Shown: piece by piece, positions 32,731 to 56,647 of the stretch
Layout: each line of letters opens with the position of its first letter
Position numbering within the stretch: position 1 is the stretch's first letter
Sequence record: MK524176.1
Length of the DNA stretch: 64,000 nt
Reading direction: 5' to 3' (one strand)
From: Escherichia phage PHB11
Made by a program: the position numbers and the translations under genes
Notes under the pieces: model-generated
Database searches by the model: none
The model's input: the letters and a program-made list of their open reading frames with translations, nothing else
What the model was told of the DNA's origin: nothing

Positions 32731-33771
32731 ATGGAGAAGTATACGCTAACAAAACTTCCCGATTCAGTTACACATGTCTTTATTGACTCTGACAGTATTG
32801 CCTATAAAGGTGCTTGTGTAGTTGAGAAAGCAAAATATAAATATGTCAATAAACTCACAGCAGAAGAATCTGAACCATTTGATAATGCAAAAGATGCCGC
32901 AAGATGGTTAGCAGACCAGAGAATCCTTGTAGAAGAGCTTGGCCTAGCATTTGATGAAGATGAATGGGAAAGACAGACTTGGAAAGAAGCTAAGAGTGAA
33001 AAAGAAGCTATCATGGCTACTCAGCAGGTTCTTCAGGAATGGCTTAAGGTTGTTGGTAAAGAAAGAACTTGGGTAGGTTACTTAACAGAGAAAGGTGTGC
33101 ATAAGCATAAAGACGTTAAAGGTCTTGAGCACCAATATCAAGGTAACCGTAAAGATGCTGTCACACCAACACACTTAGTTGCTTGTCGTGAATATCTCCT
33201 GTCAAGACCAGAGTTCAAACTCTTAAAGGGTGGCTTCGAAGCCGACTCAATCGTTATTGCTAAAGCTGAAAAGATGGGTAAGAAAGCTGCTCTTATGAGT
33301 ATTGACAAAGACCTTCGACAAGCTGAAGGTACTTATTGTATTGATATGACTTATGAAAAGTCACCACTAATTTTTATTGCTGATAATAATGTTGGTGATA
33401 TCTGGGATTGCCCTATCAAATCAAAACCAAAAGCTGCAAAAACAGTTGGTGTAGGTTTTAAATTCTTGTGTTATCAGGCTGTTGCTGGAGATAATGCAGA
33501 CAACTACTTCGGACTTAAAGGTGCTGGAAAAGTAGCTGTGATGAATGCTTTAGATGGTAAAGAGACTTATAAAGAGTGTCTTGATGCTATCTATGAACTC
33601 TATGCTAAAAAAGAGTCTTATACCTATGTATCATGGGATGGACAGACTGTTACCAAAACACCATTAGAGTTAATGGAACAGCATTTCTGGATAGCATATC
33701 AAGAGAGAAATCCAAAAGATAATTTCTCTTTTAAGAAATATAATTGGGAGCCGTGTATGAATGAAGATTAA
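32731..33771 (+). CDS. 5'-3' exonuclease (T7 gp6-like)
   Basis: Blocks VFIDSDSIAYKGA, MSIDKDLRQ and GDNADNYFGLKGAGKV matching the T7 gene 6 exonuclease pattern. Confidence 0.6.
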   Translation: MEKYTLTKLPDSVTHVFIDSDSIAYKGACVVEKAKYKYVNKLTAEESEPFDNAKDAARWLADQRILVEELGLAFDEDEWERQTWKEAKSEKEAIMATQQVLQEWLKVVGKERTWVGYLTEKGVHKHKDVKGLEHQYQGNRKDAVTPTHLVACREYLLSRPEFKLLKGGFEADSIVIAKAEKMGKKAALMSIDKDLRQAEGTYCIDMTYEKSPLIFIADNNVGDIWDCPIKSKPKAAKTVGVGFKFLCYQAVAGDNADNYFGLKGAGKVAVMNALDGKETYKECLDAIYELYAKKESYTYVSWDGQTVTKTPLELMEQHFWIAYQERNPKDNFSFKKYNWEPCMNED

Positions 33772-34258
33772 AGGATTTGGCAATTGCCCTACCTATGGTC
33801 ATTGGGTATCTTTATGTGGGGAAGTTGACCCCACTAAACATTTTGGTTTTGTCTATTTAGTACACTGTAAGAAGACCGGACAATATTATATCGGAAAGAA
33901 ACAGCTTAATAGTGTGACCAAAAGAAAAGTTGCTGGCAAGACTCGGAAGAAGGTAGTCACTAAGGAGAGTGATTGGGTGACTTATGAGACTTCTTCTGAG
34001 TATATTAAAAAAGATATTGAGAGCTTTGGAAAAGAATTTTTTGACTTTTACATTATCCAAACCTACTACACGAAAGGTGGTCTAGTTTATGGTGAAGCAA
34101 ACCTCCAACATAAATTCGATGTAATGACAAAAAGGATTGACTCTAAGCTCAGACTCTTCTACAATGCCAATATTGCAGCAATTAAGTTTATCACTAAAGA
34201 AACTTATGAAGATGCTGAAAAAAGAATCCATAAGGTAATGAAAGCAAATTGTGCTTGA
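33761..34258 (+). CDS. GIY-YIG-like (T5orf172-type) domain protein, possible nuclease
   Basis: N-terminal FGFVYLVHCKKTGQYYIGKK resembles the GIY...YIG motif pair; remainder unassigned. Confidence 0.35.
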   Translation: MKIKGFGNCPTYGHWVSLCGEVDPTKHFGFVYLVHCKKTGQYYIGKKQLNSVTKRKVAGKTRKKVVTKESDWVTYETSSEYIKKDIESFGKEFFDFYIIQTYYTKGGLVYGEANLQHKFDVMTKRIDSKLRLFYNANIAAIKFITKETYEDAEKRIHKVMKANCA

Positions 34259-44876: not shown

Positions 44877-45147
44877 AGAGAAGTGGGAGATTTTACCATT
44901 AGTGAGTGAAGGTGGTAACGGTTGTGAGATGTACATGATACGTGGTCATGTCCCAGAACCAATTGCACTTGAGATGGTAAACAATTTTACAGATGGTTCT
45001 TACAAAGATTTAGGAGAGCCAACTATAAAGCATCAATGGGTCAAACCTGTACCAGACAGCACAGGTAACTGTAGTGTACTTTATCACGTTGTAGACCCTG
45101 CAAAATGCAAATCTGCAATGGCAGTAACAAACGTAACTTTTGATTGA
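44869..45147 (+). CDS. Hypothetical protein
   Basis: 92 aa ORF coupled to the Prs-like gene. Confidence 0.35.
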   Translation: MAKEKWEILPLVSEGGNGCEMYMIRGHVPEPIALEMVNNFTDGSYKDLGEPTIKHQWVKPVPDSTGNCSVLYHVVDPAKCKSAMAVTNVTFD

Positions 45148-45158
45148 GAGAGAAAACT

Positions 45159-46040
45159 ATGAAAACATCTATCCGTGTTACAGTTCATTCACCAACTAAA
45201 GGGACTCATGAAGAAGAGTTTAACATCATCCAATTCCCTTCTGGTGAGATTGGTGGACACTTTTCACCAGAGTTTGTTGACTTCACTGCTTATGCAGCAT
45301 CATCTATCAACAATGTGATTATGATTGTAAAAGGTTATGATAAAGATACATTGTTTGCTGTGGCACTTGCTAAAGAGGCAGTGGACAACTTAGTACCTCA
45401 TAAGTTTGCTATGAAGACTGTCATCTTTTACTATTTACCAAATGCACGTTACGACCGTCACATGTTTAAAGGTGATGCAGCAGCTTTGAAAGTGTTTGCA
45501 CAACAGGTTAATGCAATGGGTTTTGATGCAGTTTGTGCAGTTGACCCTCACAGCTATGTACCAGATAACCTGTTTAACTGTTTCCAGAGTATTCCTCAAA
45601 AGGAAATTGCAGTCCACTATGCAAATGACCCACTGGTTGATTACTTAGTAGCCCCAGATGCAGGTGCTGCTAAGAAGATTGCAGAAACTGCTAAAGAGGT
45701 GGATAAACCATATATCACAATGTCTAAAGTACGTGACCTTAAGACTGGTGAAATTACTGGTATGCGAATCCTTGATGATGTTGATTTGACAGATAAAACC
45801 GTTATGATTCTTGATGATATCTGTGATGGAGGACGAACCTTCATAGAAGCAGCTAAACATCTTCGCGAAGCAGGTGCAAAACGTGTGGAACTGTACGTAA
45901 CACATGGTATCTTCTCTAAAGATGTTGAAAACCTTCTTGACAATGGTATTGACCACATCTACACTACAAACTCTTTAGGGGAAGCTAAAGACCGTGGATT
46001 AACACATTATAGTCAAGTTACTGTAGCAAACCTTGATTAA
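45159..46040 (+). CDS. Ribose-phosphate pyrophosphokinase (Prs) family protein; candidate ADP-ribose pyrophosphate synthetase (Adps-like)
   Basis: PRPP-binding loop VMILDDICDGGRT...AGAKRV...THGIFS typical of Prs; ATG 45159 with GAGAG upstream (track uses TTG at 45144). Confidence 0.65.
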   Translation: MKTSIRVTVHSPTKGTHEEEFNIIQFPSGEIGGHFSPEFVDFTAYAASSINNVIMIVKGYDKDTLFAVALAKEAVDNLVPHKFAMKTVIFYYLPNARYDRHMFKGDAAALKVFAQQVNAMGFDAVCAVDPHSYVPDNLFNCFQSIPQKEIAVHYANDPLVDYLVAPDAGAAKKIAETAKEVDKPYITMSKVRDLKTGEITGMRILDDVDLTDKTVMILDDICDGGRTFIEAAKHLREAGAKRVELYVTHGIFSKDVENLLDNGIDHIYTTNSLGEAKDRGLTHYSQVTVANLD

Positions 46041-46084: not shown

Positions 46085-47866
46085 ATGACTAAATCACTTT
46101 ATGCAGTACCAGCAGGTTTAAACGCAGATGCTTACAAATCTGGTCACATTTACCAGTATCCTAGCGCAACAGAATACTTGATGTTCAACCTGACACCACG
46201 TAGTGATAAATGGTTTAACAGTCCTTTAGCAATTGACGGTGTGGTGGCTTTTGGTATTCAACGTTTTGTTAAAGACTACTTAATAGACCACTGGAACGCC
46301 ACCTTCTTCGAACGTGACAAAGAAGAAGCAATTGACGAAATCTTAGAAGTCATGAACGGTGTTCTGGGTAAAGATGCTATTGGCCGTGAACATTGGGAAG
46401 CACTTCACGACTTAGGTTATCTACCAGTTGAAGTATACGCTGTAGAAGAAGGCACAGTTGTTCCTATGCGTGTACCAATGATTGTCTTCCAGAACACTGT
46501 TTCAGGTTTCCATTGGGTAGCGGGGTATCTGGAAGATGCTTTCTCTGCTGAGATTTGGAAGGCTTGTACCATTGCAACTATTGCATTGCACTACAAACGT
46601 ATCTGTAAGAAGTGGTCTGACCTTACTTGTGATAACGACTTACATTTGCCTTATCAGTGCCATGACTTTGCTATGCGTGGTATGTCCGGCTTTACCGATG
46701 ACGCATTTAACGCTGTAGGCCACTTAACCAGCTTTAAAGGAACTGATAGCTTCCCTGCTGTATATACAGCTAAACGCATCTATGGACAGTCCTACCCAAT
46801 CTCTGATATTGGTAGCTCTGTACCAGCCACTGAGCACTCTGTAATGTGTGCAAACATTGCTTGGGAAGGTGGTAATGAGTTGATTGAAGAAGAAAGACGC
46901 TTTAAAGGTGAGTTACAGACCTTCCGTCGTTTCTTAACAGAAACTTACCCAACTGGTATTGCAAGTGTTGTTTCAGACACTTATAACTTTTGGAGAACTG
47001 TGTCAGAAATCTTACCAGCACTTCGTAAAGAGATTATGGAACGTGATGGCAAACTGGTCATTCGTCCTGACTCTGGCGACCCTGTACATATTGTCACAGG
47101 TTATAAAGCAATCCACTTAGAGTGTGCTAAAAAGGCTTATTACGAACACCTAAGCAAGCTGGAAGCCAGCGACACAATGCTGAATGCTGTTCTGAACATG
47201 AAGCTTGAAAACATCAACTATGGTATTGCTGGATGGCTACTGTCAGAAGGCTACGAAATGGTTGTTGACAGAGAAGACTTTGAAGTTGCTGATACAGTGC
47301 TGTTGAAAAATGCTTATATGGTTGGTTCTGCAAACGTTGTAACACGTCCTGTAGCAGAGATTGATGGGGCTATTAAGACCCTGTATAACATCTTTGGAGG
47401 GACTATCAACTCTAAAGGTTTTAAGGTACTGGATGAGCACATCGGCCTTATTTATGGTGACTCTATCACGTTGGAACGTGCAAACGAAATCCTTAAGCGT
47501 TTGTATGAAATGGGTTTTGCAAGCTCTAACGTAGTGTTTGGTGTAGGTTCTTACACTTACCAGTATATGACTCGTGACACCTTTGCATTTGCTGTCAAAG
47601 CAACTCTTGCAAGCATTGGTGGTAAAGAGATTATGCTTGCAAAAGACCCTAAAACAGATAGTGGTGTTAAGAAGTCTGCTTTTGGTGGTGTAGCACCTAT
47701 GTGGGATGGTGATAAGCTGAAAGCTGTAGATGGCTATGGATTCCAGAGCTTTGAAGATGTACTTGAGCATCCAGCTTGTGCTTTACGTTTAGTCTTTAGC
47801 GAATCTGAGCAGTTTGGCTACACAACTCTTGGTGATATTCGAAATAATATTGACAAGCAACTCTAA
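46085..47866 (+). CDS. Nicotinamide phosphoribosyltransferase (NAMPT) family protein; candidate Namat-like enzyme
   Basis: 593 aa with NAMPT signature block HLTSFKGTDSFPA and GDS-containing C-terminal region. Confidence 0.7.
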   Translation: MTKSLYAVPAGLNADAYKSGHIYQYPSATEYLMFNLTPRSDKWFNSPLAIDGVVAFGIQRFVKDYLIDHWNATFFERDKEEAIDEILEVMNGVLGKDAIGREHWEALHDLGYLPVEVYAVEEGTVVPMRVPMIVFQNTVSGFHWVAGYLEDAFSAEIWKACTIATIALHYKRICKKWSDLTCDNDLHLPYQCHDFAMRGMSGFTDDAFNAVGHLTSFKGTDSFPAVYTAKRIYGQSYPISDIGSSVPATEHSVMCANIAWEGGNELIEEERRFKGELQTFRRFLTETYPTGIASVVSDTYNFWRTVSEILPALRKEIMERDGKLVIRPDSGDPVHIVTGYKAIHLECAKKAYYEHLSKLEASDTMLNAVLNMKLENINYGIAGWLLSEGYEMVVDREDFEVADTVLLKNAYMVGSANVVTRPVAEIDGAIKTLYNIFGGTINSKGFKVLDEHIGLIYGDSITLERANEILKRLYEMGFASSNVVFGVGSYTYQYMTRDTFAFAVKATLASIGGKEIMLAKDPKTDSGVKKSAFGGVAPMWDGDKLKAVDGYGFQSFEDVLEHPACALRLVFSESEQFGYTTLGDIRNNIDKQL

Positions 47867-48441: not shown

Positions 48442-50808
48442 ATGCGCATGGTAAATGACCACGCAGAAGTGATTAAGAGTTCAACTTCTTTAGAGACATC
48501 TCAAGCACAGATTACAATGACACCTGAAATGTTCAGCCTTCTGAGTTCTGGTGTATATACCTTTAAAGAGCGAGCAGTAATTCGTGAACTGTCATGTAAC
48601 GCAGTAGATGCTCAGAAAGAAGCTGGAAAAGAGGACATCCCGTTCCATGTGCATTTACCTACTCGTTTTGAGCCTTACTTTGAAGTTCGTGATTTTGGAA
48701 CTGGATTGACTCATGATAAAGTTATGAGTTTGTATCTAAATTACGGGGCTTCTACGAAGAATGACTCTAATGATTACATTGGTGCAATGGGTATCGGTTC
48801 AAAATCTCCATTTGCAATCGCTCAGTCATTCACAGTATCTAGCTATGTTGATGGTGTTGTTAATAAGTACTCTGTTTACCTTGAGAATGGCATCCCTCAA
48901 GTAACTAAGCTGACCACCAACCCAACAAAAGAACCTAATGGTTTAGCTGTACGTGTAGCAGTTGCTGACCATCGTATTTCAAAGTTCTTTGAAGAAGCTG
49001 GTCACGTATACTCATACTTTGCTGTAAAACCAGAAAGTAATATCGAGTATGACGATGTATTAGCAGACATGAATGTCATTGCCCGTGAAGAAGGTGTTTA
49101 TGATGCCATGATTCACAAACAAAGCTGGCGTTCTAGTGGCAACAGGACAGAGTTTAATGTGGTGATGGGTAACATTGCCTACCCAGTTAACATGGAAGCA
49201 TTACTTGGTGATGATTTCTTCAAAGTCTTGCCAGAGTTTTTCCGTAGGAGCGTAGACCTTGTAAACATCTATATGCCTATTGGTTCAGTTGCTATTGCAG
49301 CTTCTCGTGAAGCATTGCAGATGAATGATACAACAAAAAATGTTATCATTGAGGCTACTAAAAAGATAACTGAAGCAATTACAAAGGATGTTATCAAGAA
49401 AGTTAATAGCCAACCTACACTCATGGATGCTGCACAGGCTTATGCTGAGTTACGTTTAAACTCACGAGAGATGTTTAATGCTGTGTGTCCAAAACTAGAG
49501 TGGGGAGGCGTTAAGCTTGATTCTTTGGAAGAAGAATTGCTAAACATTCGTCGTGGAATTATCTACGCAGAAGACGGCTCAGTTATCTATGAACGTGATG
49601 GTAAAGGTAATATTAAGGTTGATAGGAACGGAAACAATATCCCTAAAGTAGATTATCTTTATAATCCAGTTGCTTATGTTAAGTTCAACTCTTTAGAAAG
49701 TAAGATTCGTGCAACAGCACTTTCCTACACTCAAGAGGCAAGTATGTTCAATATCTTTGGCGCAATGCGTAAAAGTCAAATTGAACAGTTTTTGTTTGTT
49801 ATAAATGACCGTCGCAATAAAAATGGTACTGAGAAGACTGTAGGACGCAATCAGATTCTGCGTGGTGCATGTCGAGACTATGCCAGCGAGTCAAGTCTGT
49901 TTCACAGATACAATGGTATTGTCTTTGTATTCTCTAATGAGGAAGAGCTAGATGATTTAATCAATCTGCACAAACTTGATAAAAGCTTGTTAAAGATTGT
50001 GAAGATGTCTGATAAGGAACATCATTATCAGCGTAAAGAAGCTGTAAGAGGTGTTGTAAAACTTTGGAAAGCTGTTCCAGCAGAAGGTGTAGCTTCATAC
50101 AAAGAGGTGTCAGAAGACTTAGATACGATTGAGGAGCCTCAGCTTTATATTAAGGCAGTAGGCGACACAGTTGATGGCGAATGTTTTTGCTCATCTCCAG
50201 AAGATGTAGCTAAGTCAGTTGCCAATGTCATTGGAAAGACAGTATATGTTTTCCGAAAAGCAAATTGGAAAAAGATACCAGAAGACTGGATTGAAGTAGA
50301 TGAGAAGCTCTTGAACGACAGCTTAACTGATGTTCACTGGATTAATCATAACAGGTATATGACACGTATCTATATGAATGGTGTCCTAGACCTGACAAGC
50401 AGTTGGATTATTGCCAGAAACTTTACGTTCAATAACAGGAAGATTTCTCGTGGTTATTGCTATTCACGAGACACAAACAAAACTATCTTCTTAGAAGGTA
50501 ATGAAGATGCTGTTGAGGCAATGTTTGGTAAAATCCAATACGTTGCTGCACCGTTTGCATACACTTATACTGTTAGCAGGTTGCAAACTTTGAAAGAATG
50601 CCTTGACAATGATACAAAGCTGTACAAGAAAATCAAGAAAGCTGGTGACCGTATGGTCATTAAGGTGACAAACTATCTTTCAAAAAGAAAACAAGAAAAC
50701 TTCTTGCTTTCTCATTTAGATTGGAATAAAGTGTCACCCATCGAAGTGAGTAAGTTCTTAGGCTTTGATGTGAAGTGTGTTCCAGAAGGGACTACAATTT
50801 ACGATTAA
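48442..50808 (+). CDS. rIIA: rIIA-like protein with GHKL-type ATPase domain
   Basis: Bergerat-fold boxes RELSCNAVDA (N box), DFGTGL (G1), GAMGIGSKS (G2); followed by an rIIB homologue. Confidence 0.6.
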   Translation: MRMVNDHAEVIKSSTSLETSQAQITMTPEMFSLLSSGVYTFKERAVIRELSCNAVDAQKEAGKEDIPFHVHLPTRFEPYFEVRDFGTGLTHDKVMSLYLNYGASTKNDSNDYIGAMGIGSKSPFAIAQSFTVSSYVDGVVNKYSVYLENGIPQVTKLTTNPTKEPNGLAVRVAVADHRISKFFEEAGHVYSYFAVKPESNIEYDDVLADMNVIAREEGVYDAMIHKQSWRSSGNRTEFNVVMGNIAYPVNMEALLGDDFFKVLPEFFRRSVDLVNIYMPIGSVAIAASREALQMNDTTKNVIIEATKKITEAITKDVIKKVNSQPTLMDAAQAYAELRLNSREMFNAVCPKLEWGGVKLDSLEEELLNIRRGIIYAEDGSVIYERDGKGNIKVDRNGNNIPKVDYLYNPVAYVKFNSLESKIRATALSYTQEASMFNIFGAMRKSQIEQFLFVINDRRNKNGTEKTVGRNQILRGACRDYASESSLFHRYNGIVFVFSNEEELDDLINLHKLDKSLLKIVKMSDKEHHYQRKEAVRGVVKLWKAVPAEGVASYKEVSEDLDTIEEPQLYIKAVGDTVDGECFCSSPEDVAKSVANVIGKTVYVFRKANWKKIPEDWIEVDEKLLNDSLTDVHWINHNRYMTRIYMNGVLDLTSSWIIARNFTFNNRKISRGYCYSRDTNKTIFLEGNEDAVEAMFGKIQYVAAPFAYTYTVSRLQTLKECLDNDTKLYKKIKKAGDRMVIKVTNYLSKRKQENFLLSHLDWNKVSPIEVSKFLGFDVKCVPEGTTIYD

Positions 50809-50813
50809 AGTGT

Positions 50814-50843
50814 TTGACAAGGGGCTTCAAAGCCCCTTAAAAT
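50814..50843 (+). promoter_or_regulatory. Promoter-like element with a hairpin in the spacer, upstream of rIIB
   Basis: TTGACA, then AGGGGCTTCAAAGCCCC (GGGGCT/AGCCCC stem), then TAAAAT. Confidence 0.4.
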
Positions 50844-50887
50844 AGCCTCACAAAATAATTTATTAACTAACAAGAGAGAGTAATAAG

Positions 50888-51997
50888 ATGACTACTAAAA
50901 CTAAAGCACAGATTGACGCAGAAATTTACAAACTGGTTAAAGAAGGTAAGCTGACTAAAACAGCTATTGCACAGAAGTTCAATACTTCAACCCGTTCAGT
51001 TGGTCGTGCTGTAGAGCGCCATGAAGCAACCTTAAAGGGTAAGAAAAAGATAGCTTCTAAACCAGCTACGAAGACTTTGAAGCAAGTTGCTAAATCAGTT
51101 AAAAAGAAAACTGGAAAACCAGTTGAAAAGGCCGTTAAAGACACTGTACAAAAGGCTCCGGTAAATAAACTGCACGAAGCTATGCAGAAAGATAACAAGA
51201 TTGAGTACATGATTACTGGCGACTCTGTAATTATGACTTACGGTTCAGAATCTGAAATTGTTGAGTCTACTCATCCGAACTATCAAGAGATTGTAGTTCA
51301 TGTTGTGAAAGGTGAGTTCAAGAAAGCCTTTGAACTGATGAACATTCGTAAGTCTATCGAAAACTTTACTCAGGGTGCTATCACAATCAAAGGTGACAAG
51401 TTATTCTACGGTGCTGTTGAGATGCGTTCTACTCTGGTTGACCGTATCCTTCACATGATGAAGACTGGTGATAAAGGTTTTGAACGACTTGTAATGTTCT
51501 TCGAAAAACTGATGGAAAACCCATCTAAAGACTCTGTAGAACAACTTTGGGGATTTGTATCTCACCTTGATGTTGAAATTGATGAAGAAGGCTACATCAT
51601 TGGTTGGAAGAAAGCCTCTACTCGTGAAGGCAAGCTGGTTGACTCTCACACCTACAAAGTACCTAATGATTTGGGTAACATTGTAGAAATGCCACGTTGG
51701 ATGGTTGATAACAACCGTAACGTGACTTGCTCTCAGGGTCTTCATGTTGGTGCTTGGGACTATGTCCGTTGCTTCTCAGGTGATACAATTCTGAAGGTTC
51801 GTGTCCATCCACGAGATGTTGTATCTGTTCCAACTGATTACAACGATATGAAGATGCGTTCGTCCCGTTATGAAGTTGCAGCAATCGTTGATAATCAACG
51901 TAAAGTGCTGAAAGCATGGGACGGTAAGACTGAAGCTTTGCATGTCATCGTTGGCACTGCTGGTGAACTTATCTCTCAACGTAAGCGTGAAATCTAA
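50888..51997 (+). CDS. rIIB: rIIB-like protein
   Basis: Blocks KLFYGAVEMRSTLVDRIL and KVRVHPRDVVSVPTDYNDMKMRSSRYEV closely match my recollection of T4 rIIB. Confidence 0.7.
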   Translation: MTTKTKAQIDAEIYKLVKEGKLTKTAIAQKFNTSTRSVGRAVERHEATLKGKKKIASKPATKTLKQVAKSVKKKTGKPVEKAVKDTVQKAPVNKLHEAMQKDNKIEYMITGDSVIMTYGSESEIVESTHPNYQEIVVHVVKGEFKKAFELMNIRKSIENFTQGAITIKGDKLFYGAVEMRSTLVDRILHMMKTGDKGFERLVMFFEKLMENPSKDSVEQLWGFVSHLDVEIDEEGYIIGWKKASTREGKLVDSHTYKVPNDLGNIVEMPRWMVDNNRNVTCSQGLHVGAWDYVRCFSGDTILKVRVHPRDVVSVPTDYNDMKMRSSRYEVAAIVDNQRKVLKAWDGKTEALHVIVGTAGELISQRKREI

Positions 51998-52014
51998 TAA
52001 GTAATTTCTTAAAA

Positions 52015-52036
52015 GGCTGCTTCGGCGGCCTTTTTT
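52015..52036 (+). terminator. Intrinsic terminator after rIIB
   Basis: AGGCTGC-TTCG-GCGGCCT hairpin followed by TTTTTT; a TATAAT hexamer follows at 52061-52066. Confidence 0.55.
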
Positions 52037-52097
52037 ATTTGTATTTTGTGCAGAGTGCTGTATAATTGTTGTCACGATAAACTAAACAGGAGAACCA

Positions 52098-52646
52098 ATG
52101 AAGAAGTTGATTCTAGGTTTGTGCTTAATGTTTACAGCACACTTATCTTATGCAGTTGACTGCCCAGAGCTATCAATTAGCCAAAAAGTAAACATGTTAA
52201 AAGCTTACCAGTATGGTGAGAATAATATGGGTAAAGGTTGGGGTATCACTCTAGCTGCTATAGCCTTACAAGAGTCAGAGTTAGGTCTGAAGGTAGAGAA
52301 TAAAAAGACCCATGACTATGGTATCTTCCAGAATCACTTGAAGACTGTTGTAAAGCGTAACAAAATCAGTCCTAATGTGGCTAAAAAGAAACTCTTAAAA
52401 GACTTTGACTATGCTGCAAAGGAAACACACAAAGAGCTTGAGTTTTGGACTAAGGTACATGGTCAACCAAAGTCAAAGAAGACTTTACAAAAAGTTTTAG
52501 CGTCATATAATGCTGGGTATTCGTACAAAATCCCTAAAGCTAAGAAATACTCTCAAGATGTTTACAACAATATGAAAGTCATCGCTCAATGTGAATTTGC
52601 AACAAACATTTCTAAGGTAAACCATGAAAAAATTAAGAAAGTCTGA
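52098..52646 (+). CDS. Secreted lytic transglycosylase (SLT domain); endolysin candidate
   Basis: Signal peptide MKKLILGLCLMFTAHLSYA; SLT motifs ALQESELG, YGIFQ, SYNAGYSY. Confidence 0.6.
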   Translation: MKKLILGLCLMFTAHLSYAVDCPELSISQKVNMLKAYQYGENNMGKGWGITLAAIALQESELGLKVENKKTHDYGIFQNHLKTVVKRNKISPNVAKKKLLKDFDYAAKETHKELEFWTKVHGQPKSKKTLQKVLASYNAGYSYKIPKAKKYSQDVYNNMKVIAQCEFATNISKVNHEKIKKV

Positions 52647-53319
52647 TGAAGTCCTGTGCCATGCTTACGACTTGCACCCTCATGAGTTAGGTCTTGATTC
52701 CTGTGTATGGACTCCAGAACAGTGCAGAGATTTTGAAGATACTGCAAGAGAAGTTGTATGTTCACTTGAAGAGTTCCACACATCAGAACCAATTGTGAGC
52801 GTTGTGGACAAAGAGACTGGACAATCTATAGGTGTAAGACGTGACAGTTTAGTCATAGTCAATAAAGACCTTGTAGAAAAAGGTAACCTCATCTTAGCAG
52901 ACATTGATGGTGTTCTTACAAATTTTAATCACGAAGATTGCTCAACAGAATTGATTGATGGGTCATTTTCACAGTACACTAATTTGCTTGACTCTGTAAG
53001 AGCAAAACCAACGTATGTTTTCAATATTATTGATGCAATTGCTAACCATGCTGCCATTGGACTCTTGACAGCGAGGGGTGAATCTCAGAGAATACCTACT
53101 GAGATGTTTTTAAGGCATTACATAGAGCATGATTACATGCTTTTCATGCGTGGTTTTGGAACTAACTCTATAGATGCAGAAAGTTTGAAAGTGAGGATGA
53201 TTCAGTCTTGCATTCTTCCTTACTTTAATATAGTATGTTTTATAGAAGATACAGAGAAGAATGTTCAGAAGGTAAACAGAATCCTTCCGCACATTAAAAC
53301 TATGTTAGTAAAACATTGA
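52624..53319 (+). CDS. HAD-superfamily 5'(3')-deoxyribonucleotidase-like phosphatase
   Basis: Motif I LADIDGVLTNF (DxDGVLxxF) typical of NT5C/HAD nucleotidases. Confidence 0.45.
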   Translation: MKKLRKSDEVLCHAYDLHPHELGLDSCVWTPEQCRDFEDTAREVVCSLEEFHTSEPIVSVVDKETGQSIGVRRDSLVIVNKDLVEKGNLILADIDGVLTNFNHEDCSTELIDGSFSQYTNLLDSVRAKPTYVFNIIDAIANHAAIGLLTARGESQRIPTEMFLRHYIEHDYMLFMRGFGTNSIDAESLKVRMIQSCILPYFNIVCFIEDTEKNVQKVNRILPHIKTMLVKH

Positions 53320-53329
53320 GAGAAAACTT

Positions 53330-53794
53330 ATGAACAATATCATTACGGTAGCACTGGACGTTACGGCAAACAAATCTGAAGTAGTTCGTAACATTATCAA
53401 AAGCAACTTTGAGGGTAAAATCTTCCGTGCTGTCAATGTAAAAGCAGACGGTAACATCCGAGAGTATCGTGCTCTTCTGAATGTTAAGAAACACGTCAAA
53501 GGTGCTGGTTCAACGACTGCACACAAAGAAAACCTGATGACTATCTATGATATGGGTATGGCTTCAGAGTTAGGTGCTGAAGGTATCGTTAAAGAAGGTG
53601 CTCCGTATCGCTCTTTCAATCTGGAAACTGCTCTTATGCTTTCCTTTACAAGTGGTTCTAAAACAACTACTTATCTCTTTACTGATGCTGCAACGGTATC
53701 TGCTATCAAGGATAGCACCGTCAAAGCTGGGGTAGCTGCTGCTGCAAAAGCTTCTTCGATGGCTGCAAATGTCCTTGCTAAAGTCCTCGGTTAA
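53330..53794 (+). CDS. Hypothetical protein
   Basis: 154 aa ORF followed by a terminator. Confidence 0.35.
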   Translation: MNNIITVALDVTANKSEVVRNIIKSNFEGKIFRAVNVKADGNIREYRALLNVKKHVKGAGSTTAHKENLMTIYDMGMASELGAEGIVKEGAPYRSFNLETALMLSFTSGSKTTTYLFTDAATVSAIKDSTVKAGVAAAAKASSMAANVLAKVLG

Positions 53795-53805
53795 GGTTAA
53801 GATAC

Positions 53806-53829
53806 AGGCTCCTTCGGGAGCCTTTTTCA
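53806..53829 (+). terminator. Intrinsic terminator
   Basis: AGGCTCC-TTCG-GGAGCCT hairpin followed by TTTTT. Confidence 0.6.
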
Positions 53830-53846
53830 TTTCAGGAGATTGTTAA

Positions 53847-54194
53847 ATGACATTTAAAGAGTTCTGCCAAGCTACTTTCATAATTGTTTTCTTAGTTGGA
53901 GCAGGTGTCTGGGGAGGATACTCTTACAGAGACTACCAAGTTGCTGAAGCTGAGCTAAATAATGAGAAACTAATAAGTGTTGCTAAAGATGCTTATCAGG
54001 AAGGTTTAGCCACACTCAGCACCAATTACAAAAATGATTTGAAAGACGTGCTTGCTAAGAATAAGCACACAAAAGAGGTACTAACATATGAAAAGACTAA
54101 GCCAGAGTTTTATAATGTTTGTGTTACTGATAATTATGTCAGGGTGTTCAACGAACAAAGTGAACAGTACATTCAAAAACTCCCAAGTAAGTGA
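53847..54194 (+). CDS. Inner-membrane spanin (Rz-like) candidate
   Basis: N-terminal TM helix FIIVFLVGAGVWGGYSY followed by periplasmic coiled-coil; overlaps an out-of-frame lipoprotein ORF. Confidence 0.45.
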   Translation: MTFKEFCQATFIIVFLVGAGVWGGYSYRDYQVAEAELNNEKLISVAKDAYQEGLATLSTNYKNDLKDVLAKNKHTKEVLTYEKTKPEFYNVCVTDNYVRVFNEQSEQYIQKLPSK

Positions 54195-54357
54195 GGGTGA
54201 CAAGTACACTCAAGAAGAGTCAAGATTCACTGTCAAAGGTAATACTGGTAGTGATGTGGCAGCAGCCCTTGAGTTTTATCGTGATGGTTTTTACCAGTGC
54301 ACAATCAAAGCTAATAACCTTATTGACATGATTTTATTAGGGAACAAACAGCAATGA
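54088..54357 (+). CDS. Outer-membrane spanin (Rz1-like lipoprotein) candidate, overlapping the i-spanin gene
   Basis: Signal peptide with lipobox-like IIMSGC; start embedded in the 3' part of 53847..54194 in another frame. Confidence 0.45.
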   Translation: MKRLSQSFIMFVLLIIMSGCSTNKVNSTFKNSQVSEGDKYTQEESRFTVKGNTGSDVAAALEFYRDGFYQCTIKANNLIDMILLGNKQQ

Positions 54358-54623
54358 CAGAGAATGAAGACACTTTCTATGTAGAAGGGTACTTACTGCT
54401 ACCACGACCAAAAGAAACTTATATGCGGGTTGATTTCTCACCAACCATTATGGACAACGTGATGTGTCATATCTTTATGCAAGGTGTCACAGCACAGCTT
54501 AAGCATGTTGGTAAAGAGTGTAAAATAAAGGTTGACACTCATCCAGAAATCAAAGAGAATCACTACACATGGTTCTTACCAGACTCTAAAGAAATCTTAG
54601 CAGTTCTTAAAACGAGGAAGTGA
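54354..54623 (+). CDS. Hypothetical protein
   Basis: 89 aa ORF. Confidence 0.35.
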   Translation: MTENEDTFYVEGYLLLPRPKETYMRVDFSPTIMDNVMCHIFMQGVTAQLKHVGKECKIKVDTHPEIKENHYTWFLPDSKEILAVLKTRK

Positions 54624-54952
54624 CTATGCAGATTAACGGAAGAGATTTTGTAGCCGTTTACTACGAGAAAGATAAAGAAGTTGGCGTAGCACAAGTATCT
54701 TATGGCAATGGTAAGTGGTTGTATGGGACAATCGCAGTAGTTGGAACAAGAAGTGATACAAAAACTTTTAAAGATTGTGTTGACCTTCTTGAAGAATCCA
54801 TCCACAATCATTGGTGTCTGATATGGATGACTGACAACGAAGTGATAGAACGCTTCAAAAAGATTGGTATCAACATTGATAGTATTGAGCATGTTGATTT
54901 ATACGAACTAACTGAGAAGGTAAACTATGAGAGTAATACTAGCCAGAGATAA
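54620..54952 (+). CDS. Hypothetical protein
   Basis: 110 aa ORF. Confidence 0.35.
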   Translation: MTMQINGRDFVAVYYEKDKEVGVAQVSYGNGKWLYGTIAVVGTRSDTKTFKDCVDLLEESIHNHWCLIWMTDNEVIERFKKIGINIDSIEHVDLYELTEKVNYESNTSQR

Positions 54953-55160
54953 AAAGACCCGTAAGATTGTACGTTCAGCAGTATTCATAGGGAGAGATGA
55001 AGTCGTCCCGTTTGCAGGGGAAGATGTGCTAACTTATAAGAAGGGTTTAAAACGTAAATTCAGTGACCGTTTACGTGGCTTCATCTCTGAACCATTAGAA
55101 GATTTCAAAAGTCGCTGTGGCGAAGGCATCATCATTCAAGAGGCAATTATTCATGGCTGA
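54927..55160 (+). CDS. Hypothetical protein
   Basis: 77 aa ORF. Confidence 0.3.
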   Translation: MRVILARDKKTRKIVRSAVFIGRDEVVPFAGEDVLTYKKGLKRKFSDRLRGFISEPLEDFKSRCGEGIIIQEAIIHG

Positions 55161-55353
55161 TTTCTGCAAAGATTGTGCTATCGAAATGTTTGGACGTGAT
55201 ACAGGTGACTTAAAAGGTCTTATCACTGAAGATGACTTTAAAGCTGGTTATGCAATGCCAGTAATCTGTGAAGGTTGTGGATGTATCTGGGTAGACCACG
55301 AAGGACAGCGTGTAAAACCTTCAGAAGATAAAGAATCTTGGGAGAGATGTTAA
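55153..55353 (+). CDS. Small zinc-ribbon protein
   Basis: MADFCKDC...ICEGCGC; start at internal ATG with AAGAGG upstream (track start 55117). Confidence 0.3.
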   Translation: MADFCKDCAIEMFGRDTGDLKGLITEDDFKAGYAMPVICEGCGCIWVDHEGQRVKPSEDKESWERC

Positions 55354-56139
55354 ATGGGTATTGTAAAAATTATCAAAGGCAACATCTTTGACGCATTTGA
55401 TAAAGGTAAGTTTGATATCATTGGTCATGGTTGCAACTGTATGAATTTCATGGGTGCAGGTATTGCAGCAACTATTTCTAAGCGTTATCCAAAAGTATAT
55501 GATACTGATACAGAAGTTTACCTGTTTGCAGGTGGTATTCGTCACAAACCATGTGAAAATCTGCTAGGTAATTTCTCTGTAACACGTTTAAAACAAGGCC
55601 GTATAGCCAATCTTTACACCCAGCTTCATACCGGTAAAGATGCCCGATATAGTGCTTTAGAGTCATCTTTGAAACAGCTTAACAGATACTGTGAAGTTAA
55701 TCAGTTGAAGAAAGTTGGGTTACCTATGATTGGTGCAGGTATCGGTGGACTAGACCCTCAAGCCGTCACAGTTATCATTAATCAGGTGATGAAGAGTGTA
55801 GATGTTTACCTGTATGTCTATGAGACAGAGATGTACAACGAGTTACACTCAGGTTGGAAGAACTACTGTGAACCAGAATACTTTGCAGGTGTAGTAGTGT
55901 TCACTGATGATGCAGTTACCCTCTTCAGACGAAGAAAAGGCAAGATACATCAAAGTAACCCTCCGGTTGAAAAGATGTCTCTAAGTAACGCTCTAGTTAC
56001 CCACCTGTCGAAGAGCAATCACAGAATTGCAGTAACATTTGGCAGTGATGCAGATACATATATCTATGCAAGAACTGATGAGGATATCGAGACGGTCTTC
56101 TCTTCACCGGAAGTAACCTTCTTAGACGCAAAGAACTAA
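55354..56139 (+). CDS. Macro-domain protein (ADP-ribose binding/processing) with C-terminal extension
   Basis: Macro-like blocks IIKGNIFDA, DIIGHGCNCMNFMGAGIAATI and VGLPMIGAGIGGLDP. Confidence 0.55.
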   Translation: MGIVKIIKGNIFDAFDKGKFDIIGHGCNCMNFMGAGIAATISKRYPKVYDTDTEVYLFAGGIRHKPCENLLGNFSVTRLKQGRIANLYTQLHTGKDARYSALESSLKQLNRYCEVNQLKKVGLPMIGAGIGGLDPQAVTVIINQVMKSVDVYLYVYETEMYNELHSGWKNYCEPEYFAGVVVFTDDAVTLFRRRKGKIHQSNPPVEKMSLSNALVTHLSKSNHRIAVTFGSDADTYIYARTDEDIETVFSSPEVTFLDAKN

Positions 56140-56207
56140 GAAACTCTGTAGAATATTCACAATAGGTTAAGCCTTTCTTATCTGGTAAATTTTTCAGGTA
56201 AGGAGGG

Positions 56208-56406
56208 CTTTTTCATTTCAGGATTGTGCAGGTAGAGTTCTGGACAGAAATCTGTAGAGAAAATTTTGAACTCCAAAGAGAAAATTCATTTTCAAACTGT
56301 GCAGGTAATCTCCAAAGAGCTTTTTCATTTTCAAAACGTGCAGACCCCGCTCAGGTCGGGCAAGAAAAATCATTTTAGAATTGTGCAGGTAGGTGGGTGC
56401 AGGTGG
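56208..56406. repeat. Iteron-like direct repeat array in non-coding DNA
   Basis: Four to five copies of TTCATTT(T)CA-N4-5-TGTGCAGGTA (TGTGCAGGTA at 56225, 56298, 56382; degenerate CGTGCAGAC at 56337; GTGCAGGTG at 56397); adjacent 38-39 bp tandem pair starting CTCCAAAGAG at 56271 and 56310. Confidence 0.6.
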
Positions 56407-56568
56407 GGATGTCGCCATTTCTCACAAGGCTACCACATCTGAAAAGAAAAGTCAACAGAAAAATTTGTAGCGGATTGAAAAATAATTCTTGATTGTAGTT
56501 CTGTTTTGTGGTAGTCGCGTGCGCCCGTTTCATTACAGTTTTTGCAAAAAATATTTTTAAAATTCCTA

Positions 56569-56597
56569 TTGACTCTTTGAATATGGTTATCTAATAT
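56569..56597 (+). promoter_or_regulatory. Sigma70-like promoter for the first early gene
   Basis: TTGACT, 17 bp spacer, TAATAT, about 50 nt upstream of ATG 56648. Confidence 0.45.
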
Positions 56598-56647
56598 TTG
56601 CATCAGACGGGCAATCAAGCCCACTTCCTAAACTGGAGAATCAAAAA

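Follow-up and report, generated by a model that had tools for sequence, protein, structure and literature searches.

In a transposon screen on DarTG2-expressing E. coli, tk.4 was the single depleted gene of phage T4, and a clean tk.4 knockout sensitises T4 to DarTG2; the gene was therefore renamed adfM, for anti-DarT factor Macrodomain (10.1101/2025.11.20.689424). The evidence for T4 adfM is genetic and comes from a 2025 preprint. An independent phage macrodomain, PhiKZ gp104 (AdfM), clears ssDNA of T-ADPr in vitro and confers protection from DarTG2 (PMC13309987), and a parallel to these proteins is found for DarTG1 in the NADAR orphan antitoxin AdfN (PMC11825919). Streptomyces SCO6735, which has a glutamine (Gln85) at the position of the catalytic lysine, was the fastest of three enzymes compared at stripping thymidine-linked ADP-ribose from DNA; exchange of this residue (Q85A and Q85E) leaves no activity, N27S almost none and G128E a substantially lower one, with Asn27 positioning the catalytic glutamine (PMC9411070). 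TARG1 and SCO6735 are promiscuous enzymes that also hydrolyse protein-linked ADP-ribose, and catalytically dead forms of SCO6735, DarG and TARG1 still inhibit DarT through interaction (PMC9411070). The role of the AdfM family is already published for T4, and the macro or 'phosphatase' label of the gene analysed here is present in hundreds of records; only its C-terminal domain and the exchange of its alleles as a cassette are potentially new.

The window, i.e. the whole stretch of DNA that was analysed, comprises 64,000 nucleotides of Escherichia phage PHB11 (MK524176.1). It represents a Felixounavirus, a Felix O1-like lytic myovirus; 257 phage records match, the best being vB_EcoM_Shy with 97% identity over 5.5 kb. 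On its plus strand the window carries a gene for a two-domain protein, referred to below as the macro gene, whose product we consider on balance a probable AdfM-type orphan antitoxin, that is, a DNA ADP-ribosylglycohydrolase that would counter DarT2-type defence. The gene and its surroundings comprise the following features:

55340..55346 (+), Shine-Dalgarno-like GGGAGAG, 7 nt 5' of the ATG of the macro gene (direct sequence reading)
55354..56139 (+), coding sequence including the stop codon, 261 aa, macro domain and Ounavirinae-specific C-terminal domain (phrog_335, E = 9e-115, residues 1-260)
55354..55821 (+), macro domain, residues 1-156, ALC1-like class with Gln-type active site (Pfam, PDB profile and Foldseek)
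55426..55437 (+), H25-G26-C27-N28, by alignment equal to H24-V25-C26-N27 of SCO6735
55621..55623 (+), Q90 of the NLYTQ motif, at the position of Q85 in SCO6735, K84 in TARG1 and K80 in DarG
55732..55740 (+), G127-A128-G129 of the IGAGIGG phosphate-binding loop, equal to G126-C127-G128 of SCO6735
55822..56136 (+), C-terminal domain, residues 157-261, predicted to be largely beta, an orphan by sequence as well as by fold
56169..56220 (+), intrinsic terminator with a 17-bp stem and an 8-nt loop, followed by UUUUUCAUUU (U-run), found by folding

The open reading frame is intact from its ATG start to its TAA stop codon, and the stop codon (55351-55353) of a preceding ORF, which codes for a 66-aa CxxC protein, directly abuts the ATG of the macro gene. 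The terminator downstream has a folding energy of -24.4 kcal/mol (z = -7.6), and none of 200 shuffled sequences folded as well. It is a strong intrinsic terminator, and we therefore conclude that the macro gene closes a local transcription unit. An earlier note on this DNA had placed the gene at the end of the rightward operon, which is correct for this local unit but not beyond it, as genes on the plus strand resume after an intergenic region of ~430 nt. Scans for tRNAs and Rfam families around the macro gene gave no match.

The same note had described the product as a macro-domain protein and had proposed profile-based assignment to a subfamily as well as structure prediction. Both approaches confirm this description, and the matches go far beyond what chance would give. 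The Pfam family PF01661 (Macro) matched residues 25-141 with 30.7 bits (gathering score 22; E = 3.3e-7), phrog_335, which is annotated as 'phosphatase', covered nearly the entire protein, and the sequence blocks that had been quoted as typical of macro domains are all present (KGNIFDA at residues 8-14, DIIGHGCNCMNFMGAGIAATI at residues 21-41 and VGLPMIGAGIGGLDP at residues 121-135). A family profile built from 23 homologs and run against PDB sequences detected TARG1 (E = 1.1e-18), SCO6735 (5e3b; 1.7e-18), BT1257 (8e-18), M. tuberculosis DarG (5e-16), Poa1p (1e-15) and Thermus DarG (2e-14), whereas members of other classes scored only 3e-3 (MacroD-type 5lcc) and ~1e-3 (viral nsP3). The AF2 model of the full-length protein (pLDDT 89.6, pTM 0.87) shows a macro alpha/beta fold with an ADP-ribose-binding cleft. 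Foldseek ranked the ADP-ribose-bound macrodomain of Thermus DarG first (E = 2.7e-10, TM (target) 0.80), followed by TARG1, M. tuberculosis DarG and Poa1p (1.9e-9), with 5m3e, 4j5s, 5m3i and 6lfr among the matches; the best 50 of the 244 PDB matches with E<=1e-3 consist of macrodomains and of designed enzymes built on a macro-like scaffold. Profiles and predicted structure alike assign the macro half to the ALC1-like class (TARG1, DarG, SCO6735, Poa1p) and not to the MacroD, PARG or viral nsP3 classes.

The best structural match, DarG of DarTG2 (Thermus 5m3e/5m31, M. tuberculosis 5m3i), resembles the PHB11 protein in its two-domain layout with an N-terminal macro domain. However, DarG features a catalytic Lys80, a second domain that binds DarT and a neighbouring darT gene; the PHB11 protein has Gln90 in place of the lysine, its C-terminal domain gave no match to DarG models, and no darT was found among nine neighbouring ORFs. 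Dedicated DarG models matched in their macro part only: NF048014 of NCBIfam (DarG equivalog) reached 55.3 bits against a cut-off of 250 and aligned at profile positions 2-151 of 338, and the DarG model of PADLOC aligned at positions 3-146 of 329.

Human TARG1 (OARD1) and yeast Poa1p share the ALC1-like fold class with the PHB11 protein, and the presence of Poa1p among the significant relatives, in the profile search as well as by Foldseek, would also fit a hydrolase of small ADP-ribose derivatives. Such an enzyme could dephosphorylate Appr-1''-p, as Poa1p does, deacetylate O-acetyl-ADP-ribose, or break down toxic metabolites or immune signals that derive from ADPR. Products of relatives are named 'phosphatase', 'O-acetyl-ADP-ribose deacetylase' or 'macro domain protein' in GenBank, and a PseT-like polynucleotide kinase/phosphatase that is encoded 2 kb upstream of the macro gene hints at RNA-repair chemistry nearby. 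T4 Tk.4 has long been listed as 'phosphatase, A1pp motif'. However, these names result from homology transfer, and phosphatase activity as in Poa1p is ascribed to the phage family by annotation transfer only. TARG1, SCO6735 and DarG score equal to or better than Poa1p, no source of Appr>p or Appr-1''-p of the Tpt1/KptA type is annotated in the relatives, and the sole phenotype known in the family, that of T4 Tk.4, is counter-defence against DarTG2. We therefore regard a small-molecule hydrolase as rather improbable.

The active site of the PHB11 protein carries the signature HGCNC, NLYTQ and IGAGIGG and is of the Gln type, as in SCO6735. Residues H25, N28, Q90, G127 and G129 as well as the NLYTQ motif are invariant in the alignment of 23 homologs; an Erwinia homolog outside this alignment has a glutamine at the position of His25. 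The catalytic dyad of TARG1 (Lys84/Asp125) is absent, as it is in SCO6735: Lys84 aligns with Gln90 and Asp125 with Gly131, and the position of the catalytic Lys80 of DarG is likewise occupied by Gln90. In common with SCO6735 are the glutamine at the position of the catalytic lysine (Q85/Q90), the conserved asparagine (Asn27/Asn28), the histidine (His24/His25) and the glycines of the phosphate loop (Gly126 and Gly128/G127 and G129). Differences concern Val25, which is Gly26 in the PHB11 protein, and Lys34, which is Ala35. Furthermore, the loop QLHTGKDARY is five residues shorter than the 'mobile loop' of SCO6735 (QHGMKTGSKGAPVRY) and has K95 as its only lysine; the DNA-favouring lysines K89 and K93 are absent because of this shortening. 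SCO6735 is encoded by a cellular, RecA-regulated gene and has no counterpart of the C-terminal domain. The earlier note had held that its reading would fall if profile searches found no macro domain or if the residues for ligand binding were replaced; neither is the case, since the profiles match significantly and the residues that serve in binding and positioning have been retained.

Replacement of the catalytic lysine of TARG1 and DarG by glutamine, and of Asp125 of TARG1 by glycine, might suggest that the protein works without catalysis, either as a reader or sponge of ADP-ribose or by inhibiting DarT stoichiometrically, with binding possibly through its C-terminal domain. The inhibition of DarT by catalytically dead SCO6735, DarG and TARG1 would provide a precedent, and the second, DarT-binding domain of DarG makes the two-domain layout suggestive. 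But the activity of SCO6735 with Gln85 implies that a lysine-to-glutamine replacement need not mean a dead site: in SCO6735 it is precisely this glutamine that is essential for fast hydrolysis of dT-ADPr, and that N28, Q90 and the Gly loops do not vary at all is in keeping with an enzyme. The C-terminal domain, moreover, matches no PDB fold and no region of the DarG models outside the macro part, and its net charge (below) is unlike that of an acidic ssDNA mimic. We consider a purely non-catalytic function most unlikely.

With T4 Tk.4 the protein shares 34% identity over 157 residues (BLASTP, E = 3e-23), membership in phrog_335 and the motifs HGCNC, NLYTQ and IGAGIG. Both genes stand alone, with no toxin partner, in a lytic enterobacterial myovirus. 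T4 Tk.4 is a single domain of 155 aa from a member of the Straboviridae, whereas the PHB11 protein belongs to the Andersonviridae/Ounavirinae and has an added C-terminal domain of 105 aa. PhiKZ AdfM, by its published description, is Lys-type (N23/K78, DarG-like) and enters the phage nucleus (PMC13309987), and it differs in this from the PHB11 protein; the role that we propose would be the same. The macro half is basic, with a pI of 9.26 in the PHB11 protein and of 8.6-9.3 across homologs. The AdfM-type reading is based on the homology to T4 Tk.4 together with the DarTG2 phenotype of the latter, on the SCO6735-type residues, on the precedent of PhiKZ AdfM and on the basic macro half, and from these we infer that the protein is catalytically competent, that dT-ADPr on ssDNA is its substrate and that it acts against DarTG2. 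The suggestion in the earlier note that the gene might reverse ADP-ribosylation and be directed at DarT-type systems agrees with the best evidence, namely the homology to Tk.4/AdfM and the SCO6735-type signature.

Several observations speak against this AdfM-type reading. Identity to T4 AdfM is only 34% and ALC1-like macrodomains are promiscuous; K89 and K93 are absent, K34 is replaced by Ala35 and His25 is not universal; and the extra domain, which has no counterpart in T4 Tk.4, could redirect specificity.

The proposed reaction would begin with a host DarT2-type toxin that is released on infection and ADP-ribosylates thymidines in phage ssDNA, leading to a replication block, a step that is known from the literature. 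The basic macro domain would then bind ADP-ribose via its two Gly-rich loops, MGAGIA and IGAGIGG. Gln90, held by Asn28, would position the distal ribose, and the bond between ribose and thymine would presumably be cleaved in a water-mediated reaction, as proposed for SCO6735. Unmodified DNA and free ADP-ribose would be released.

A related activity would be the removal of ADP-ribose from protein or RNA rather than from DNA, by which the phage could counter ADP-ribosyltransferase (ART) toxins such as RNA-targeting CmdT-like enzymes or edit host or phage proteins. Protein-linked ADP-ribose is hydrolysed by TARG1 and SCO6735, to which the protein is closest among characterised structures. A defence system that ADP-ribosylates RNA has been described, and phage erasers have been proposed as possibly directed at it (PMC11825919). 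The C-terminal domain could also shift specificity towards another target. On the other hand, enzymes of the DarG type are DNA-specific and the phenotype of the T4 homolog is specific for DarTG2. Moreover, no ART is annotated in Felixounavirus relatives or was found among the neighbours of the macro gene. An eraser of protein or RNA modifications appears unlikely to us.

A search of the nine neighbouring ORFs up- and downstream revealed no DarT, no ART and no match to a PADLOC defence model. This is what would be expected of an orphan antitoxin, and the attribute 'orphan' in our assignment is based on it. Our literature search yielded no study in which Felixounavirus or Bas63 is considered together with DarTG.

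Further upstream the window contains two ORFs of NAD+ metabolism, both identified by Pfam:

45144-46040, Prs-like ORF
46085-47866, NAMPT-like ORF

In annotated relatives the gene order is Prs, NAMPT, a hypothetical gene, rIIA, rIIB, lysin, spanins, small ORFs and the macro gene. The pair is NARP1 (Adps/Namat), as in the Felixounavirus Bas63. The Bas63 pair is the founding NARP1, in which Adps converts ADPR and ATP to ADPR-PP and Namat uses this compound and nicotinamide to form NAD+, and it counters SIR2-HerA (10.1101/2024.02.11.579819). A 'NAD synthetase' gene of relatives was considered as a third gene of the NAD pathway and rejected, as it codes for a GIY-YIG SegE-like endonuclease.

The earlier note had connected the macro gene with the Prs/NAMPT pair. 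The pair is indeed present in the window; a link to the macro gene, however, found no support. The two are 7.5 kb apart and not adjacent. If such a link existed, the macrodomain might act as a metabolic feeder that frees ADPR from conjugates or signals for the rebuilding of NAD+ by NARP1 (Adps and Namat). The presence of the characterised pair in the same window, the fact that macrodomain hydrolysis yields ADPR and the precedent of RyDEP, an ADPR-releasing enzyme that feeds NARP1 (PMC13232231), are in agreement with this possibility. However, rIIA, rIIB and the lysis genes lie between pair and macro gene, and a matching macro gene is carried by >2,800 phage records of many genera including T4, where the annotation of the 3.4 kb around tk.4 shows no NARP1-type pair. 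In addition, the NADase effectors that are countered already supply the substrate of NARP1 in bulk (10.1101/2024.02.11.579819), and DNA would presumably carry little ADPR. A feeder function is in our opinion quite unlikely. If the AdfM-type reading holds, Felix O1-like phages carry a counter-defence against DarTG2 alongside NARP1. The AdfM family, which is newly defined, would then reach a second phage family, and the Gln-type (SCO6735-like) chemistry would be the version used by T4-like and Felix O1-like phages.

Felix O1-like phages are widely used in typing and biocontrol of Salmonella and E. coli. If our assignment is true, DarTG of a target strain would be a lesser barrier to these phages, and the macro gene could serve as a marker in the prediction of host range.

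The C-terminal extension of the macro domain, which had been noticed before and estimated at ~110 aa, is real although somewhat shorter (~105 aa, residues 157-261). Its dN/dS values are 0.16-0.37 within Felixounavirus and 0.23-0.41 between genera, compared with 0.02-0.15 and 0.12-0.23 for the macro half. The dN of the C-terminal domain is ~2x that of the macro half, and amino acid identity to Mordin is 0.50 as against 0.75 for the macro part. By these sequence comparisons it is a real domain under purifying selection whose rate of evolution is roughly double that of the macro half. The domain occurs in 255 phage records, assigned to Felixounavirus, Suspvirus and Mooglevirus by organism name and the matches listed, and among the matches listed it is always found under a phosphatase or macro-domain gene where a product is named. 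Its sequence distribution is restricted to the Ounavirinae. An Erwinia Kolesnikvirus homolog is of similar length (260 aa), but its tail showed no detectable homology to the C-terminal domain by hhalign (probability 0.3%), and few positions align with MAFFT.

No significant match to the C-terminal domain was obtained in Pfam, PHROG, PADLOC or PDB sequences, and none in a word-indexed protein search; an exhaustive profile search of 1.84e9 representative proteins returned only its own family and fragments. Two proteins that emerged as candidate homologs, P0028 with WSC-like and P0029 with WD-like repeats, were dismissed as spurious multi-stretch matches. At the level of structure, no PDB fold matched, and BFVD gave the SUSP2 homolog only. 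The SUSP2 model from BFVD superposes poorly on the model of the isolated domain (TMq 0.39), for which pLDDT is 76; because of these two values the isolated model is not robust. In the full-length model the domain is mainly beta and reaches a pLDDT of 80-92, and this increase, together with the pTM of 0.87, suggests that it would pack on the macro domain. The invariant residues M160, P174, G179, V180, S201, N212 and Y236 do not look catalytic. Among the homologs, net charges range from -5 to +2, which leaves the idea of a DarG-like acidic ssDNA mimic unsupported.

Of the functions considered for the C-terminal domain, that of a non-catalytic accessory module which would sit on the macro domain and tune the binding of substrates or partners seems to us the most likely, although our confidence in it is low. 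A bolder variant, which we hold to be doubtful, would make it a second, non-enzymatic counter-defence module that binds DarT2 or tethers the hydrolase to ssDNA or the replisome. The combination of eraser and toxin binder known from DarG would then have been re-created independently and in a non-homologous manner, and the divergent alleles described below would reflect an arms race with host toxin variants.

Comparison with another contig (L003) revealed a divergent allele of the macro gene. The contig is 94.8% identical to the window over 49369-54933 and 85% identical over 55146-55495, shows no detectable nucleotide similarity to window positions 55496-56324 and becomes similar again at 56325. 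Its two-domain protein (P0009) is 39% identical to that of the window, while the abutting CxxC ORF upstream is 98% identical. This allele is also located at the orthologous locus of the GenBank Felixounavirus finno (finno_37); both domains and all active-site motifs are kept. Weak tblastn matches (H99, H100) had raised the possibility of a genomic paralog, which was rejected: none is present in the window, and the match in finno (H100) is the orthologous gene in its divergent allele. The match in FSL SP-107 (H99) is presumably a divergent orthologous allele, too. It follows that the macro gene is exchanged as a cassette between near-identical Felixounaviruses. Swapping of divergent cassettes is often seen for counter-defence genes, and we count it as support for the counter-defence reading of the macro gene. 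The C-terminal domain and the swapped cassette together provide a compact natural experiment in the tuning of macrodomain erasers by accessory domains. On its left the cassette begins within the conserved 5' part of the macro gene, and on its right it ends in a set of conserved intergenic repeats.

The macro gene, with its C-terminal domain, has a second allele whose protein is 39% identical to that of the window, and this allele is found in the contig L003 and in Felixounavirus finno (L011, gene finno_37). The features on which the argument draws are as follows.

Features of the window and of one related locus
33761-34258: ORF that relatives and phrog_447 label 'NAD synthetase' (Pfam PF19835, E=1.4e-27)
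45144-46040 and 46085-47866: Prs-like and NAMPT-like genes, the NARP1 pair (Adps/Namat)
52624-53319: 231-aa ORF with a DxDGV HAD-type motif, phrog_3970 'polynucleotide kinase' (PseT-like)
55153-55353: 66-aa CxxC...CxxCxC (zinc-ribbon-like) ORF, phrog_2210
55496-56324: region swapped between the alleles, from the comparison with L003 and L011
56204-56391: direct repeats TCATTT-N8-GTGCAGGTA within 28-34-nt units, three exact copies and one degenerate
56440-56600: AT-rich stretch downstream of the repeats
L006 1498-2280: Kolesnikvirus homolog (Erwinia phage vEam_PM_6), 260 aa

Judged from the sequence comparison, the macro and C-terminal gene is exchanged as a cassette among Felixounaviruses that are approximately 95% identical upstream. 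We estimate that roughly a dozen of the 255 phage records matching the C-terminal domain carry the second allele. On its right side the cassette ends inside the set of direct repeats, which are placed immediately 3' of the macro-gene terminator; Felixounavirus, Suspvirus and the phage with the divergent allele all keep them at this site. No other copy of the repeat occurs in the window, where 0.02 matches would be expected by chance. The repeats could be iteron-like elements, or serve as regulatory or recombination sites.

On the other side of the gene, the stop codon of the 66-aa ORF directly abuts the macro ATG. This small ORF has counterparts at the equivalent site in Mooglevirus (73%), Suspvirus (83%) and the phage that carries the divergent allele (98%) and is not conserved there in Erwinia Kolesnikvirus; it may provide translational coupling to the macro gene or encode a partner of it. 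The PseT-like ORF, for which Pfam gives no match, precedes the macro gene by 2 kb.

The homolog of Erwinia phage vEam_PM_6 retains the overall length, features a glutamine in place of His25 (GQGCNC) and has a tail that is unalignable to the C-terminal domain profile (hhalign probability 0.3%). In metagenomic phage contigs, other accessory regions are joined to three Tk.4-type macrodomains (P0014, P0018 and P0019): two carry N-terminal extensions, and the third, a protein of 339 aa, has PF20274 and a long tail at its C terminus. The addition of modules to a Tk.4-type eraser is thus not unique to Ounavirinae.

Despite their host names, Staphylococcus phage SA1 (GU169904; 91.8% DNA identity) and Campylobacter phage A132 (MG065664; 93% amino-acid identity in the C-terminal domain) carry sequence that exceeds 90% identity to the Felixounavirus of the window; both records are probably contaminated or mislabelled assemblies. 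Campylobacter phage A112b (MG065682) matches the macro part only, at 31% identity.

The ORF labelled 'NAD synthetase' is a GIY-YIG SegE-like homing endonuclease according to its Pfam match; the label looks like a propagated annotation error. The Prs-like/NAMPT-like pair is the counterpart of NARP1 as characterised in Felixounavirus Bas63 and should not be labelled as PRPP synthetase and NMN-forming NAMPT.
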